A stretch of DNA of 39,203 bases from an uncultured Planctomycetia bacterium (GCA_964421145.1 CAYQVM010000001.1:6108-45310), one strand, 5' to 3'. Shown: positions 14,921 through 37,886, counted from the stretch's first letter. Numbers and translations: made by a program. The notes: generated by a model from the letters alone, not told the origin.

Positions 14921-15407
14921 GCTCAAACTCCTTATCATTAAAAACAAATTTCACGCTCGCCCGATTTATCTCAATAAGCGTAGCCCCCTCAATCATATCG
15001 CCTTTTGACAGCACTTTATTATTGACTATAGCATAAGGCCTTTCGTTATCATAAACAATCCCGCTTAAATTCAAAGTCGGTAAATCCGGCGCATTTTTAG
15101 ACGGTGATACCGGCGCGGAGGCCTGTCGCGTTTCCTCTTTGATAGGCTCTACTTTAGAAACCTTTTTAAAAAAACTTTTGAAAAAAAGCAGCGTCCCTGA
15201 AATTATTACAACAACCATTAAAACGGGTAAAAACCGCCTGATCTTCGCGGGACGCTTGAAACCCTGACGCGACACAGCGGGCAGAGAAGAAACCTGTGTA
15301 TTTGACGGCGCACCTGCGCTGGGTTCGGGTACTTGATCGGCAGCCACGTTAACCCGCTGCTTGTTTGCTTCCTGCGCCTTCTTCAGCGCCTCATTTATTA
15401 TACTCAC
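14907..15407 (-). CDS. GspB/ExeB-like protein (partner of the ExeA-type ATPase)
   Basis: N-terminus MSIINEALKKAQ, one TM helix, and a C-terminal LNLSGIVYDNERPYAIVNNKVLSKGD like the GspB C-terminal domain. The GTG start is supplied by palindromic element copy A. Confidence 0.6.
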   Translation of the reverse strand: MSIINEALKKAQEANKQRVNVAADQVPEPSAGAPSNTQVSSLPAVSRQGFKRPAKIRRFLPVLMVVVIISGTLLFFKSFFKKVSKVEPIKEETRQASAPVSPSKNAPDLPTLNLSGIVYDNERPYAIVNNKVLSKGDMIEGATLIEINRASVKFVFNDKEFELSSE

Positions 15408-15454
15408 CCAGCCCCTCCTGCTTACCCAGTACCCCTCTCATAGGAGGGGCTGGG
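15406..15454 (-). repeat. Palindromic SD-GUG element, copy A
   Basis: Arms CCCAGCCCCTCCT (15407-15419) and AGGAGGGGCTGGG (15442-15454) with a 22-nt loop. Lies at the junction of the ExeA-like stop (15422) and the GspB-like GTG (15407). Confidence 0.85.
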
Positions 15455-20609: not shown

Positions 20610-20960
20610 ATGGGAAAGGCCATTGAAGAAAAACGGAAATATTTACGTTTGAATAACGCGCTAGAGACTGAATACACGCTGTCAAATTCGGACAGAAGAT
20701 ATTTGGCTACGACAAAAGATATCAGCGCCGTAGGTTTGAGGATTTCTACGCCTCAGAAATTAGAAGAGGGCTCCAATATAGAAATCACATTAAAATTACC
20801 TAATGCGCAAAGCGCGGTTCACGCCTCCGGGCGCGTAGCCTGGTCAAAAAAAACCACCCCTGAAGATAAGCTGTTTGACTCCGGCGTAGAATTTTTGAAA
20901 ATTGAAGACGACAATAAGAATACGTTTCTTAAGTATTTGTGTGATTTGATCTATGGGTAA
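20610..20960 (+). CDS. Single-domain PilZ protein
   Basis: RKYLR (RxxxR) and DISAVG (DxSxxG). 116 aa. Confidence 0.75.
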   Translation: MGKAIEEKRKYLRLNNALETEYTLSNSDRRYLATTKDISAVGLRISTPQKLEEGSNIEITLKLPNAQSAVHASGRVAWSKKTTPEDKLFDSGVEFLKIEDDNKNTFLKYLCDLIYG

Positions 20961-21381
20961 GGAGCCTATGAGAAAAAACTTGGTTTATGGTATGGAATTT
21001 CAAAAAACCGAAATTCCAACCACTGAAAATCGCCTAAAGGTTATCGCGAAGCGATTTTCTTGTGCGCTAGGTATTGTCGTTCTGCTGGGCATAATGGGTT
21101 GCGCTGAACTGACAACTCCGGATCCCAATAAGCCAACCTCTCACCCGCTTGGTTTTGGCCCAATTGAGATAGGTATGACAAAAGATGAAATCAAATCTTT
21201 TTGGGGCGAGCCGGACCTGATCCGGGACATCGCTGAAAGCAAAGATAAGGGGGCTACCCAAAAAGAAGAGTGGGTTTACTACGGCCGGGTAAACCAGCTG
21301 CCTGTAAATTACGGTTATCTTGCTAAAGCTCTCCATTTATACTTCGACGGCAAAAACCTCACAGGCTACAAATACGAATGA
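20953..21381 (+). CDS. Lipoprotein with a BamE/SmpA-OmlA-like domain
   Basis: Lipobox LGIMGC and IEIGMTKDEIKSFWGEPD. The exact start is uncertain (ATGs at 20953, 20968 and 20992). Confidence 0.5.
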   Translation: MGKEPMRKNLVYGMEFQKTEIPTTENRLKVIAKRFSCALGIVVLLGIMGCAELTTPDPNKPTSHPLGFGPIEIGMTKDEIKSFWGEPDLIRDIAESKDKGATQKEEWVYYGRVNQLPVNYGYLAKALHLYFDGKNLTGYKYE

Positions 21382-21430
21382 ACCCAGCCCCTCCTATAGA
21401 AGGCAACTGGGTTAGTAGGAGGGGCTGGGT
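21382..21430 (+). repeat. Palindromic SD-GUG element, copy B
   Basis: ACCCAGCCCCTCCT (21382-21395) and AGGAGGGGCTGGGT (21417-21430) with a 21-nt loop. Starts 1 nt after the upstream stop (21379-21381). Confidence 0.85.
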
Positions 21431-21629
21431 GAAAAAAAATTGGTTGCACTACTTAGCGTGCATAGTTGCACCGCATATCATGCTTTTTGTCGGTCTAATA
21501 TACCTAACCAAACAGGATATTAATAAAAAAGCTATGGGTAAAAGGATTTGCATCCTGTCCAGCATCGTGCTTATTACCGGTAGTTTAATATATTACATGT
21601 TTTTCACGCCTATTTTTGGCCTGGATTGA
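21429..21629 (+). CDS. Small two-TM membrane protein (66 aa from GTG 21429; alternatively 83 aa from ATG 21378)
   Basis: Hydrophobic segments LACIVAPHIMLFVGLIYL and ILSSIVLITGSLIYYMFF. GTG 21429 has the same AGGAGG-6 nt-GTG geometry as copies A and D. Bracketed by element copies B and C. Confidence 0.45.
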   Translation: MKKNWLHYLACIVAPHIMLFVGLIYLTKQDINKKAMGKRICILSSIVLITGSLIYYMFFTPIFGLD

Positions 21630-21677
21630 CCCAGCCCTTCCTAAAGAAGGCAACTGGGTTAGCAGGAAGGGCTGGGT
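21629..21677 (+). repeat. Palindromic element, copy C (stem with compensatory C>T / G>A change; terminator-like context)
   Basis: ACCCAGCCCTTCCT (21629-21642) and AGGAAGGGCTGGGT (21664-21677), followed by TGATTTTTC. No ORF follows. Confidence 0.85.
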
Positions 21678-21686
21678 TGATTTTTC

Positions 21687-21715
21687 TTGACAAAATGCCC
21701 CCCGCATGCTATCCT
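21687..21715 (+). promoter_or_regulatory. Putative promoter of the cold-shock gene (predicts a ~165-nt 5' UTR)
   Basis: TTGACA (21687-21692), 17 nt, TATCCT (21710-21715). Confidence 0.45.
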
Positions 21716-21791: not shown

Positions 21792-21836
21792 CCGCATTCG
21801 GTACAAGAAAAAGCATATTTTCTGTACGGGATGCGG
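21792..21836 (+). promoter_or_regulatory. Long imperfect hairpin inside the csp 5' UTR
   Basis: CCGCAT..ATGCGG outer pairs, GGTACA/TGTACG middle pairs and AGAAAA/TTTTCT inner pairs, followed by CATTTTATTAC. Confidence 0.4.
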
Positions 21837-21886
21837 CATTTTATTACTTACTCCAAATCTAATTCAGGGAAGGAGGTTAGTTTTCA

Positions 21887-22090
21887 GTGCCGACAGGAAC
21901 AGTAAAATGGTTTAGCGACCAAAAAGGTTACGGCTTCATCGTGCCAGACGGCGGGGGAAAAGATATATTCGTGCACCACACCGGTATTGAAGGGGCGGGT
22001 TTTAAGTCTCTCAAAGAAGGCGATAAAGTCCAGTACGAAGTATCTCAAAGCCCTAAGGGCGAGCAGGCAGTAAAGGTCGCTAAAATATAA
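21887..22090 (+). CDS. cspA: Cold-shock protein (CspA family)
   Basis: [15 protein letters not shown] (RNP-1) and DIFVHH (RNP-2). GTG start with AGGAGG 10 nt upstream. Confidence 0.9.
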
Positions 22091-22118
22091 TTTAGTTATA
22101 ACCTTTAACCCTAAGACA

Positions 22119-22156
22119 AAACCCACTTATTGTTCTTGATAAGTGGGTTTTTCTTT
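22119..22156 (+). terminator. Rho-independent terminator of cspA
   Basis: AAACCCACTTAT / ATAAGTGGGTTT forms a 12-bp stem with an 8-nt loop, followed by TTTTTCTTT. Confidence 0.8.
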
Positions 22157-34915: not shown

Positions 34916-36640
34916 TTATTTTGTCTTTTTAAGACGCCTTAAGACCTCTTCGGCATTGAAACAATTCAGAATATTTTTCTTCTCAAGCCAGCCCCTCCTT
35001 GCTACACTAAGGCCGTATTTCATGTTGTCAAGCTGATCGACATGGTGCGTATCCGTGCCGATGGCAAGCACGACACCCATGGACCCTGCCCTTCTTGCGC
35101 TTGTATCATCAAGGTCCAGCCGGGATGGAAACGAGTTTATCTCCAGGGCAGTATTCGTATCTCTGGCCGCTTTAAAGACCTCATCCATATCAACGGCGTA
35201 AGCGTCTCTCGAACCCATCAACCTGCCGGTGGGATGTGCTATTATATTGACATACCTGTTTTGCATAGCCTTTATTATCCTTTTGGTCAACTTCTCTTTT
35301 GACTGTTTAAATCCGCTGTGGATTGCCGCGACAACAATATCAAGTTCTGACAGGACTTCATCTTTAAAATCCAGGGAGCCATCATCCAGGATATCAACCT
35401 CGGCGCCAGCCATGACCCTAAAATCCTTTAGCTTCTTATTAATATTTTTTATGTTTTTTACCTGATTAAGCAATTCCCGCTCCTTAAGGCCTCCCGCAAC
35501 AGCCAAAGTTTGAGAATGGTCGGTGATCGCCAGATACTTATACCCTCTTCGGATCGCCGCTCTTACAAGGTCATCTATTGAATCCGACCCATCACTTGCC
35601 TTTGTATGGACATGAAAATCCCCTTTTATATCTGTCAATTCTACTAAATGCGGCAATTTATTTTCAAGCGCCGCTTTGATCTCCCCCCTGTCCTCTCTTA
35701 ATTCCGGTGGTATGAACCTAAGCCTGAGAACCCTGTATATCTCCTCTTCTGTCTCCCCGCCTAATCTTTTATTGGTTTTAACCGAGAAAACGCCATATTC
35801 GTTTATCTTTAGGCCTTTTTTAACCGCCGCCTCCCTAAGCCGTATATTGTGTTCTTTTGAGCCCGTAAAATATAAGAGCGCGGCGCCAAAGCTCCTCGGC
35901 TCAACAGCCCTTACATCCACCTGCATATCCTCTTTTGTTATCGCGCTGGATTTAGTGGGCCCGTGCGCGAGAACCCTTTTAATAAAAGGAAGCTTTATGA
36001 AAGTATTCATCACATCTACGGGTGAAGTTGTTGTGATCAGTATATCTATATCCCGGATAGTCTCTTTCCGGCGCCTGAGGCTTCCACACGCCGCTATCTG
36101 GTTAATCTGCGAAGCATTCTTTAGGGCCAAGACTATCTCTTCGGCCATCGGCAGCGCTAGACCTAAGGAAACTCTCTCTTTACCTTTCCTTACAATCTGG
36201 ATACCTTTGAGTATATTCTCTTCGGTCTTCCGGCGTATTCCCGGAATGCTGCTTAACTTATGCGCCTTCGCCTTGCTTTCTAGGTCATTGATACTTTTTA
36301 TCTTAAGCTTATTCACCAATGTCTTTGCGGTCTTGGGCCCTATTCCGGGAATATCTATAAGCTTTAAAAATGCCGGTGAGACCTTTTTCTTCAGACCCTC
36401 AAAAAAGGCGACCTTGCCTGTCCCGATAAATTCCCGGATCTTCCCGGCAAGATCAGCGCCCACGCTAGGGATGTCCGTCAGCTCATCTCTCTTGGCGATT
36501 TCGCCCACGTCTTCCGAGAGGGCCTCTATATTCTGGGCAGCCCTTCTGTAGGCCCTGATCCTGAACGGATTTTCGGCTTGGACTTCTAATATTTCAGCGA
36601 TTTGGTTGAAGATTTCCGCTATCTTGAGGTTGTTGGTCAT
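34916..36640 (-). CDS. polX: Family X DNA polymerase with a C-terminal PHP phosphoesterase domain
   Basis: N-terminal HhH motifs (IPGIGPKTA), the Pol beta-like core GSLRRRKETIRDIDIL, and PHP motifs (DFHVHT, ITDH, GTDTH). Confidence 0.9.
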   Translation of the reverse strand: MTNNLKIAEIFNQIAEILEVQAENPFRIRAYRRAAQNIEALSEDVGEIAKRDELTDIPSVGADLAGKIREFIGTGKVAFFEGLKKKVSPAFLKLIDIPGIGPKTAKTLVNKLKIKSINDLESKAKAHKLSSIPGIRRKTEENILKGIQIVRKGKERVSLGLALPMAEEIVLALKNASQINQIAACGSLRRRKETIRDIDILITTTSPVDVMNTFIKLPFIKRVLAHGPTKSSAITKEDMQVDVRAVEPRSFGAALLYFTGSKEHNIRLREAAVKKGLKINEYGVFSVKTNKRLGGETEEEIYRVLRLRFIPPELREDRGEIKAALENKLPHLVELTDIKGDFHVHTKASDGSDSIDDLVRAAIRRGYKYLAITDHSQTLAVAGGLKERELLNQVKNIKNINKKLKDFRVMAGAEVDILDDGSLDFKDEVLSELDIVVAAIHSGFKQSKEKLTKRIIKAMQNRYVNIIAHPTGRLMGSRDAYAVDMDEVFKAARDTNTALEINSFPSRLDLDDTSARRAGSMGVVLAIGTDTHHVDQLDNMKYGLSVARRGWLEKKNILNCFNAEEVLRRLKKTK

Positions 36641-37838
36641 CCTGCCTCTCTTGTCCGGAGCCTAATGTCTGCTTAAAGACATCCTGCAAAACCTTCTTAC
36701 CCGCATCCTCTATATTGCCCGTCTCTTTGACCTTTTCTATGATCATATTCGGTATCTTGGAGACCCCCCTCATTATGGCGTTGCCTATTGATTGGGCGAG
36801 GACCTTTTTAAGGGCTTCGGCGAGGTGAAATCGCGGGTCAGACAAAGTACCGGTTATCTCAAAGCTAAAATCTAAATCCCCACGGCTATTGATAAAAAAC
36901 TGCATAACGGTTTGCATCGGCAGGCCAAAAACCATGTTATCCGAGGAGGTATTGGGATTGGCGGCGACCTCCAGATCCGCTATGCTTACCAGCTGTATGG
37001 AATCAAGCTCGTTTCTCCTGCATTTCCCCTTAGCCGTCAAATTGAAACTTCCAGTAACGGCAAGTAGGGGGGCGGTATTTGTATAAAAAGGCATGAAGGC
37101 AGGCAATGATATATTAGTTGCTTGAAGATTTGCATCAAAGTCTATTAGTTCGGTAAGGAATCCCCCTCTGCCTTCGAAATTTACCCTGCCGGCACCACCG
37201 GGGAACGGCATCGCCCCCTGGCATTTAACCAGTGTAGGCATTTCACCCTGCCTTCTGGGTTTGGTCAAATTTGTTATATTCACATCTATCTCATTAAACG
37301 TTATTCTGGCACCCATGGCGTTGACTTTATAATTGATAAGCTGGTAAGTGCCTTTCTTAATCTCTATTTTCCTTATCGCAAAATACGTCTCTTTCTTTTG
37401 AGCGGGGGCAGCTGGGCCTGGACCACCGCCCCCAGAAGTATTCTTTTTGAAAATCATCCGCATATTAGAAATTCCGTCTTCTTTTATTTCTATATCAAAT
37501 TTAGGGGTATAGAGTAAGATCCGATCTATTATGATTTTTTTAAATAAAAGCGATTCTATGCTTACGTCTATATAGCCACTTGGTACGTTAACAAAAGATG
37601 CTTCGGCTGAACCTGCCGGATTTTTGATTTTTAGATCGGAAAAATAAACAATTCCTCTAAATAGGTCCACTTTTACATCACCGGCTTCTGCCTTTGTATT
37701 TATAAGCTTATTTAATTCCTCTATCCCCCTCTCTTTAATAAAATCGGAGGCGCGGCCCTGGACAAAAAAGGCCGCCATGGCCGCGGCGATGACGGCCAAA
37801 ATCAATACAATGCCCATAAAGATAAATGTCTTTTTCAC
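36594..37838 (-). CDS. AsmA-like / DUF748-like membrane-anchored protein
   Basis: N-terminal anchor MKKTFIFMGIVLILAVIAAAMAAF and repeated beta-rich segments like the AsmA/DUF748 families (by eye). The GTG start is supplied by element copy D. The 3' end overlaps polX by 47 nt. Confidence 0.5.
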   Translation of the reverse strand: MKKTFIFMGIVLILAVIAAAMAAFFVQGRASDFIKERGIEELNKLINTKAEAGDVKVDLFRGIVYFSDLKIKNPAGSAEASFVNVPSGYIDVSIESLLFKKIIIDRILLYTPKFDIEIKEDGISNMRMIFKKNTSGGGGPGPAAPAQKKETYFAIRKIEIKKGTYQLINYKVNAMGARITFNEIDVNITNLTKPRRQGEMPTLVKCQGAMPFPGGAGRVNFEGRGGFLTELIDFDANLQATNISLPAFMPFYTNTAPLLAVTGSFNLTAKGKCRRNELDSIQLVSIADLEVAANPNTSSDNMVFGLPMQTVMQFFINSRGDLDFSFEITGTLSDPRFHLAEALKKVLAQSIGNAIMRGVSKIPNMIIEKVKETGNIEDAGKKVLQDVFKQTLGSGQERQDDQQPQDSGNLQPNR

Positions 37839-37886
37839 CCAGCCCCTCCTGCTAACCCAGTGGCCCTCTATAAGGAGGGGCTGGGT
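37837..37886 (-). repeat. Palindromic SD-GUG element, copy D
   Basis: ACCCAGCCCCTCCT (37837-37850) and AGGAGGGGCTGGGT (37873-37886) with a 22-nt loop. It exactly fills the gap between the radical SAM stop (37887) and the AsmA-like GTG (37838). Confidence 0.85.

Follow-up and report, generated by a model that had tools for sequence, protein, structure and literature searches.

Why two almost identical palindromes should bracket a single very small gene is the question raised by one locus in a 39,203-nucleotide (nt) stretch of DNA from an uncultured Planctomycetia bacterium (GCA_964421145.1 CAYQVM010000001.1:6108-45310; hereafter the window, with positions counted from its first letter). The palindromes, copy B (21382-21430) and copy C (21629-21677), are 49-nt direct repeats that are 92% identical and spaced 247 nt apart. 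The sole open reading frame (ORF) between them runs from a GTG at 21429 to a TGA ending at 21629 and encodes a protein of 66 amino acids (aa); we refer to it as the mini-gene. Comparison with related genomes makes it very likely that copies B and C are independent insertions of a palindromic, gene-less element of about 47 nt, similar to the MITEs (miniature inverted-repeat transposable elements) of other bacteria and confined to one family of Candidatus Omnitrophota.

That the two copies are genuine repeats around one small ORF, as an initial annotation of the window had proposed, was confirmed. With up to two mismatches allowed, the window contains 10 instances of the 13-nt arm motif CCCAGCCCCTCCT, compared to 0.8 expected, and none of 100 shuffled sequences contained as many. 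The stems of copies B and C comprise at least 14 bp, with a folding energy of -33.9 kcal/mol each (z = -7.1 for copy B and -4.8 for copy C).

Empty sites in related genomes

Contigs from eight relatives were syntenic with the window and contained a PilZ gene, a small lipoprotein-like gene and the mini-gene, followed on most of them by genes for a cold-shock protein (csp), a STAS-PilZ protein, an M23 peptidase and a UvrD-like helicase. Seven homologues of the mini-gene product were found, which are 65 or 66 aa long, share 70-79% identity with it and begin with MKK (MIK in one case) at the position of GTG 21429. Orthologues of the upstream, lipoprotein-like gene occupy the same place in these loci (L084-L091) and encode 112-118 aa. 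In all eight syntenic loci, the upstream gene and the mini-gene overlap by ATGA and both elements are absent.

The empty sites show what each insertion added. Site B reads ..GA ATGA AAAA.. (..GAATGAAAAA..) in all eight loci. At site C (..GGATTGATTT..TTGACA), three loci have ..GGA TTGA TTT(C/T).. and the remaining loci have CTGA, TTAA, CTAG, CTAA or TTAA. The surplus of the window over the empty loci is exactly 51 nt per site, of which 47 nt belong to the element and 4 nt to a duplication, as expected if each insertion duplicated 4 bp of its target. The duplicated target is TGAA at copy B and TTGA at copy C. Because the target duplications differ and the eight loci are empty at both sites, B and C are separate insertions into different targets, and the mini-gene is older than both. 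A composite cassette, in which the mini-gene would have been mobilized or copied along with both flanking elements, had been raised in the initial annotation on account of the repeat-ORF-repeat arrangement, and direct repeats 247 nt apart around a single small ORF would fit it. The cassette is refuted, since the comparison of orthologous loci that the annotation called for placed the mini-gene at the same syntenic position in eight relatives with neither element, the target duplications are unlike, and homology searches returned orthologues alone and no second copy of the gene. Small ORFs between repeats should not be read as cassettes before empty sites have been checked.

The element across the genome and its relatives

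The assembly that contains the window (G000; 1.03 Mb, 150 contigs, 47% G+C and 86% complete) has 24 full copies of the element, 44-49 nt in length, all in sense orientation. The arms are perfect inverted repeats of 13-14 bp in 22 of these copies. Each copy is flanked by 4-nt direct repeats whose two members vary together, mostly TGAA but also TGCG, TGAG, TTGA (twice, copy C included) and TTAA. Since the paired flanks are not complementary to each other, they are not extensions of the stem and behave as target-site duplications. The duplicated sequences TGAA, TTGA and TGAG are each present once at empty orthologous sites. The element thus has terminal inverted repeats and target-site duplications and is small, non-coding and dispersed, all of which are features of MITEs, an identity that the initial annotation had not recognized.

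At least 20 of the 24 copies occupy the start codon of a long, recognizable gene. Judged from their N-termini, these housekeeping genes include murG, ruvX, purN, aroK, glyA, trpA and proC as well as isopropylmalate/homocitrate-synthase-like, phosphoglycerate-mutase-like and bioD-like genes. The layout at these sites is A[TGAA]-element-[TGAA], where the last G of the element and the duplicated TG form a GTG that lies 6 nt past the AGGAGG Shine-Dalgarno (SD) sequence of the 3' arm. A length of 47 nt, which maintains the frame of the old ATG, is kept in 14 copies, and nine copies of 48-49 nt are out of frame with it. In four of the 48-nt copies the old frame ends at a stop codon in the loop, yet these copies precede ruvX, purN, aroK and other genes, which argues that the junction GTG and its SD must be a working start in this organism. 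Three copies lie off start codons: copy C; C12a, with a TTAA duplication, in a 5' untranslated region; and C34 (G000 C34:3331-3377), with a TTGA duplication, 5 nt past a TAG stop codon. The right TTGA of C34 forms the first four bases of a promoter-like site (TTGACA-17-TATACT) of the next gene.

Sites filled in G000 were empty elsewhere. The empty purN start (..ttATGAAAAAC..) was found in G004 and G002, which represent sister genera of the same family; the empty ruvX start (..ATGAGAATA.. or ..ATGAGGATC..) was found in G001, G004 and G002 and fits the TGAG duplication in G000. The murG start was empty in G001 (..ATGAAGATATTAAT..) and the aroK start in G001 and G004. The exact element was detected in 3 of 41 related genomes, all labeled Candidatus Omnitrophota, and a looser pattern, in which the outer arms and TGAA were fixed, recovered 63 metagenome contigs with the element.

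A second size class consists of long variants of 94-113 nt, with ends of the form CCC(A/C)GCCCCTCCT, flanks of the form ATGAA...TGAA and an AT-rich interior. The bioD-like start codon carries several forms: a 47-nt TGAA form in G000 (C6:2811-2857) and G002 (L002/L018), a 44-nt form in bin.182 (L011) and a 113-nt form with TGAG in G001 (L109); the site is empty (ATGAGGCAT) in G004 (L108). This start codon was struck independently at least twice and probably three times, and the repeated hits suggest that the preference for start-codon targets is real.

The element resembles bacterial MITEs such as Correia/NEMIS, ERIC and RUP, and also the Rickettsia palindromic elements (RPE), some of which are read in frame within genes (PMC3184786), in being gene-less, in its terminal inverted repeats and target duplications and in its hairpin-forming transcripts. 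In known MITEs, however, the duplication is usually TA or longer and insertion is broadly intergenic, whereas the duplication here is 4 bp (T-G/T-N-N), start codons are the prevalent target and no parent insertion sequence was found. Searches of the literature, which were not exhaustive, gave no account of this element or of any repeat family in Omnitrophota. As far as searched, an element whose palindromic end and 4-bp duplication regenerate an SD and a start on the start codon of a host gene is apparently undescribed for this group.

Several observations weigh against a MITE-like element. No pair of arms 0.1-4 kb apart enclosed a gene in G000 or in about 120 loci, and a search for an autonomous parent with arms 0.07-4 kb apart returned only long variants of 73-113 nt and chance pairs; because the assembly is fragmented and 86% complete, absence of the parent is weak evidence. 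The exclusive sense orientation and near-exclusive location on start codons are not explained by simple cut-and-paste transposition; strong selection, or else a target preference with a fixed direction, would be required. Insertions at aroK and the bioD-like gene are common to two genera, with perfect arms and diverged loops in copies recovered by an exact-arm search that favors such arms, which hints at host-level constraint over pure selfishness. The long variant at the bioD-like gene of G001, which was found without that bias, has uncompensated arm changes.

Other identities fared less well. A vertically inherited cis-regulatory leader preceding the genes of a regulon, i.e., an SD-sequestering switch or RNA thermometer rather than mobile DNA, would account for the uniform orientation, the perfect conservation of the arms across genera and a three-segment layout (anti-SD, anti-anti-SD and SD) that allows two alternative hairpins, but we regard it as very improbable given the presence/absence polymorphism at every locus tested, the exact single-copy targets at empty sites, the co-variation of the 4-nt flanks, the functionally unrelated genes served, the copies off start codons (C, C34 and C12a) and the lack of a matching Rfam family. 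Neither copy matched a known RNA family in Rfam 15 at E <= 1; the only hit was a weak match to the cspA thermoregulator downstream. A REP sequence mobilized by a RAYT was rejected because neither GTAG nor CGTC heads the palindrome (its ends are CCCAGCC...GGCTGGG), insertion duplicates the target and G000 has no Y1 transposase. The Y1 transposase domain (PF01797) had no matches in G000 or G004 and two in G002. Small, stand-alone GIY-YIG genes are present in G000 (two), G002 (about eight) and G004 (about five). They were rejected as partners of the element, since the two in G000 (C109:2438-2656 and C135:319-537) have no CCCAGCCCCTCC-type ends within 400 bp. The GIY-YIG gene on C135 is framed by different, CGTCATTGCGAGC-type repeats and may be a separate mobile element.

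Table 1. Features of the mini-gene locus, sister copies in the window and long variants of the element. Positions are those of the window unless a contig or locus is named.
Feature	Position	Strand	Remarks
Upstream gene	20953..21381	+	142 aa, signal-peptide/lipoprotein-like, weak BamE-like match
Ancestral mini-gene ATG	21378..21380	+	ATGA overlap with upstream stop; in frame, 51 nt upstream of rebuilt start
Left TGAA duplication, copy B	21379..21382	+	
Copy B core, 47 nt	21383..21429	+	5' arm 21383-21395, loop 21396-21416, 3' arm 21417-21429
Right TGAA duplication, copy B	21430..21433	+	With last G of element gives GTG 21429-21431
Mini-gene	21429..21629	+	Conserved 66-aa protein with two transmembrane segments, VKKNWLHY...FTPIFGLD
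Left TTGA duplication, copy C	21626..21629	+	Holds mini-gene stop TGA 21627-21629
Copy C core, 47 nt	21630..21676	+	5' arm 21630-21642, loop 21643-21663, 3' arm 21664-21676
Right TTGA duplication (21677-21680) and U-rich tract TTGATTTTTCTT	21677..21688	+	
csp promoter-like site	21687..21715	+	TTGACA-17-TATCCT
Cold-shock protein gene csp (CSD)	21887..22090	+	Own canonical terminator at 22118-22151
Sister copy, 48 nt	15407..15454	-	On start codon of 166-aa gene
Sister copy, 48 nt	37838..37885	-	On start codon of 414-aa gene
Long variant	G000 C1:1257-1368		Outside window
Long variant	G000 C11:4030-4123		
Long variant	G000 C17:12033-12126		
Long variant	G000 C94:320-413		
Long variant	G000 C95:3080-3176		
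Long variant, 113 nt	L109		G001 bioD-like gene

The paired substitution and the third segment

Two of the four differences between the copies are in the arms, where copy C has T instead of C at 21638 and A instead of G at 21668, bases that face each other in the stem; the remaining two lie in the loop. The compensatory double change reported in the initial annotation is therefore real, as is the accompanying weakening of the SD: copy C reads AGGAAGG, without GGAGG, where copy B has AGGAGG (21417-21422) in its 3' arm. The loop of copy C is nearest to that of copy B (edit distance of 2), and its other near neighbors are also copies with a C:G pair at this stem position, almost all of them from G000, which indicates that the T:A pair arose within this lineage. 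To judge from these sequences, copy C probably derives from copy B or from a parent shared with it. Membership of copy C in the T:A-arm subfamily seen in metagenomes was rejected, since its loop is nearest to B and then to C:G-arm copies of G000 and G002.

The double change is unlikely to be a product of chance. When four random substitutions were placed on copy B, a Watson-Crick-compensated pair in an otherwise perfect stem resulted in 0.5-0.9% of trials. Among 89 family copies, counted irrespective of shared descent, position 9 of the stem is C:G in 50, T:A in 35, A:T in one and unpaired in three, and 1118 of 1157 arm cells are Watson-Crick pairs, with the outer seven stem positions of the metagenome copies fixed by the search pattern. 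Changes on both sides of the stem were detected at four positions (4, 9, 11 and 12) among 24 distinct arm haplotypes, and the covariation score of these haplotypes was not matched in any of 500 shuffles when shared descent was ignored. Covariation shows that intramolecular pairing, in RNA or single-stranded DNA, marks the evolution of the element.

A third segment, which the initial annotation had missed, takes part in this pairing. Within the loop, the 3' arm is repeated once more in degenerate form (GGAGGG-nnn-CTGGG), and this mid segment is able to pair with the 5' arm; it reads GAAGGCAACTGGG in both copies (21399-21411 in B and 21646-21658 in C). For the compact hairpin of 5' arm and mid segment, folding energies lie between -16 and -23 kcal/mol in most copies, and the consensus gives -19.9 kcal/mol. 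The arm base at stem position 9 and the mid-segment base that faces it form the combinations C-G in 44 cases, T-A in 22, T-G in three and C-A in none. Counted by motif, C:G-arm copies have a G-type mid segment in 42 cases and an A-type in two, and T:A-arm copies have an A-type in 12 cases and a G-type alone in none (Fisher p = 1.6e-10, shared descent ignored). The two C:G-arm copies with an A-type mid segment only include copy B, whose alternative hairpin is accordingly weak (-10.1 kcal/mol, z = -1). The C-to-T change of copy C restores the alternative 5' hairpin (-14.3 kcal/mol, z = -3), and its G-to-A change keeps the long stem perfect. The event in copy C is a three-way match, beyond a two-way pair. 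Such a matched change implies that the alternative hairpins of the element form, as RNA or as single-stranded DNA, in an uncultivated Omnitrophota bacterium.

One 64-nt copy in G000 (C4:19713-19776) consists of a 5' arm, an AT-rich loop, a degenerate 3' arm (AGAGAGGGCTGGG), TAAAAAT and a perfect 3' arm. Its mid segment is nearly a full arm, and this copy thus illustrates how duplication of an arm may have given rise to the layout of three segments.

The initial annotation took the double change as direct covariation evidence that the hairpin is under selection. The improbability of the change and the complementarity of the family arms support part of that claim, but proof of selection was overstated, because template switching gives the same pattern. 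Quasi-palindrome correction is an established mutational process. The paired change and the symmetry of the arms could thus result from template switching or mismatch correction in an extruded quasi-palindrome, with no need for selection on the hairpin, an explanation that we rate only a little short of even. In such a sequence of events, the 5' arm would be copied from the mid segment and would in turn serve as template for the 3' arm; the change in copy C does render all three segments consistent, as if one templated the others. The stem with the U.G intermediate (-27.9 kcal/mol) is nearly as stable as that with U:A (-28.2 kcal/mol; -24.0 kcal/mol with C.A), which would leave very little selection for the second step. 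The family has G.U and A.C mismatches in similar numbers (13 vs. 8), which gives no signature of a sense-strand RNA, and copy C serves no ORF, so no obvious function requires its stem to be perfect. On the other hand, mutation alone explains poorly why copies with a loop divergence of 10-30% have perfect arms, four stem positions show recurrent compensated changes, and the 113-nt copy of G001, found without a bias toward perfect arms, keeps one G.U and one C.A mismatch uncorrected. We give selection and templated correction roughly equal weight as the cause of the covariation. A single odd copy, in a genome where the other 23 share one arm type, is less well explained by co-evolution with a transposase.

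Consequences for the mini-gene and its neighbors

If the element is mobile, as we conclude, copy C would have entered the TTGA at the stop codon of the mini-gene. It lies 10 nt upstream of the -35 box of csp, which is conserved in the syntenic loci. As the initial annotation stated, what follows copy C is a U-rich tail, TTGATTTTTCTT, with no notable ORF. The tail has seven T in 10 nt and a score of -3.94, compared to -2.25 to -3.05 elsewhere, and is the most U-rich among the 24 copies; copy C is also the only copy off a start codon with such a tail. Since the empty sites carry the U-tract as well (TTGATTTCAC, TTGATTTTTC and CTGATTTTCC), the tract is older than the insertion. The GC-rich stem of copy C (-33.9 kcal/mol) now stands directly before this pre-existing tract, as in intrinsic terminators, and may terminate or stabilize the upstream transcript.

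We therefore considered whether copy C was co-opted as an intrinsic terminator or 3' stabilizer that would end the transcript of the PilZ, lipoprotein-like and mini-genes and insulate the csp promoter. This proposal, drawn from the arrangement of the sequence, is tentative, and we hold it to be somewhat less probable than its negation. In its favor, a stem of 14-20 bp is directly followed by UUGAUUUUUCUU, the tail score is the best of all copies, and the interval from the mini-gene to the csp -35 box holds no further hairpin in the window or at the empty loci. Extragenic GC-rich palindromes such as the REP sequences, with their RAYT transposases, and the pneumococcal SPRITE repeats can act as 3' stabilizers or terminators (PMC3733652, PMC3184786), so such roles are known for REP-like and SPRITE repeats (PMC3184786) and the role proposed for copy C is the same. 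In other respects REPs differ from the element: they begin with GTAG or CGTC, do not duplicate their target and are partnered by a Y1 transposase, and the element has none of these traits. The 21-nt loop of copy C is far above the canonical size of 3-8 nt, and a consensus terminator scan did not call the site, a result explained by the long loop. Moreover, eight relatives have no hairpin at the junction, and the U-tract is interrupted (UUGA).

A sister palindrome occurs at the very same junction in strain L090 (1079-1124; CCCCGCCCTTTTGG...CCAAAAG, as in G000 C21:12259-12308), and the site is empty in its near-identical twin L089 (1701-1770). This lends some support to the proposal, since a second palindrome at this junction points either to a hot spot or to a benefit of a hairpin there. 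The tail of the L089 contig (1745-1763; CTGTCTCTTATACACATCT) resembles a Nextera adapter, which we take to have been left in the public assembly. Downstream, the Rfam cspA thermoregulator gave a weak match at 21803-22152 (27.5 bits vs. a gathering score of 78) that covers the gene and its long leader, a region also conserved among the syntenic loci as far as the leader is concerned.

The mobile element would have reached the other end of the mini-gene by entering the ATGA stop/start overlap of the lipoprotein-like gene and the mini-gene. The upstream TGA stop codon (21379-21381) lies inside the left TGAA duplication of copy B, which preserves both this stop and the old ATG at 21378. The right TGAA gives GTG-AAA-AAA, leaving the protein unaltered except for its initiator codon, and copy B created the arrangement AGGAGG-6 nt-GTG. 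GTG 21429 is now probably the main start of the mini-gene. The upstream stop (21379-21381) lies at the foot of the stem, so that termination there would bring a ribosome that unwinds the 5' arm and makes the SD accessible, and such exposure would retain the coupling once given by the ATGA overlap. The locus provides a before-and-after picture of a tiny transposon that lands where a stop and a start codon share four bases and breaks neither gene; both survive because a ribosome-binding site and a start codon are rebuilt from the end of the element plus the duplicated target. Copy C, in turn, shows the other setting of the element, the 3' end of a gene before a promoter.

The alternative start at ATG 21378, to which the initial annotation drew attention, is in frame, and the reading of 83 aa is open. 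Because 51 nt keeps the frame, a form of that length could be made from the old ATG, with the 17 open codons before GTG 21429 read as MNPAPPIEGNWVSRRGW. That this ATG is the start in use, so that the element is translated as an N-terminal extension, seems to us doubtful, though more than a token possibility. The ancestral ATGA coupling signal is intact, the SD of the GTG is buried in a stem of -34 kcal/mol, the in-frame length of 47 nt predominates among the copies of G000, and the gene caller used for the assembly picked the 83-aa form (P0001). Against it, the nine out-of-frame copies lie on essential-type genes (ruvX, purN and aroK among others), often with a stop codon in the loop; all orthologues have 65-66 aa; and no recognizable SD precedes the ATG. 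Usage of GTG 21429 and ATG 21378 is not mutually exclusive. For annotation, gene callers add 17 spurious or optional residues to such genes, giving 83 rather than 66 aa in the present case.

The closest functional analogues of copy B are the MIRUs of mycobacteria (Supply et al. 1997), a likeness in the way of working that was set by description and does not imply membership. MIRUs are 40-100 bp long, have tetranucleotide direct repeats and empty and filled sites between species, and lie in one orientation at junctions of polycistronic operons, with an open frame that overlaps the stop and start codons of their neighbors (PMC3184786). Likewise, copy B has its TGAA duplication, with the upstream TGA and the old ATG on the left, the GTG on the right and 17 open codons between them. 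Unlike MIRUs, the element occurs in another phylum and is a near-perfect palindrome of 13-14 bp, which supplies a consensus SD and joins the duplicated target to make a GTG; most sites hold a single copy, unlike tandem MIRUs. The REP2 repeats of Neisseria and the upstream inverted repeats of Borrelia lie directly upstream of genes and provide a ribosome-binding site, a start codon and internal stem-loops (PMC3184786). They differ in being longer and in having their own promoter and ATG, with no described duplication that regenerates the second codon of the host gene.

Taken further, the element might be a mobile, three-segment translational switch. The SD would be accessible when the 5' arm (anti-SD) pairs with the mid segment and buried when this arm pairs with the 3' arm instead. 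Genes with start-codon insertions would share ribosome- or temperature-dependent control of coupling, an element placed after a stop codon and at a U-tract, as in copy C, would act as a terminator, and the three-way covariation would reflect selection on both hairpins. We think this extended model unlikely. If it were true, regulatory wiring would have been spread by a mobile element in a streamlined genome.

Two further observations concern sequences related to the arms. A solitary arm (GCCAGCCCCTCCT) at 34987-34999 of the window has no partner arm nearby and may be the remnant of a decayed or truncated copy. Four loci from Hainich groundwater (L028, L042, L057 and L069), which were caught by the loose pattern, contain a different 59-nt repeat that has only the outer ends CCCAGCCCCT...AGGGGCTGGG in common with the element; with its interior of ...CGAAATAATCGGGACTCCGTTGCGACTGCGCAC..., it probably belongs to an unrelated repeat family.

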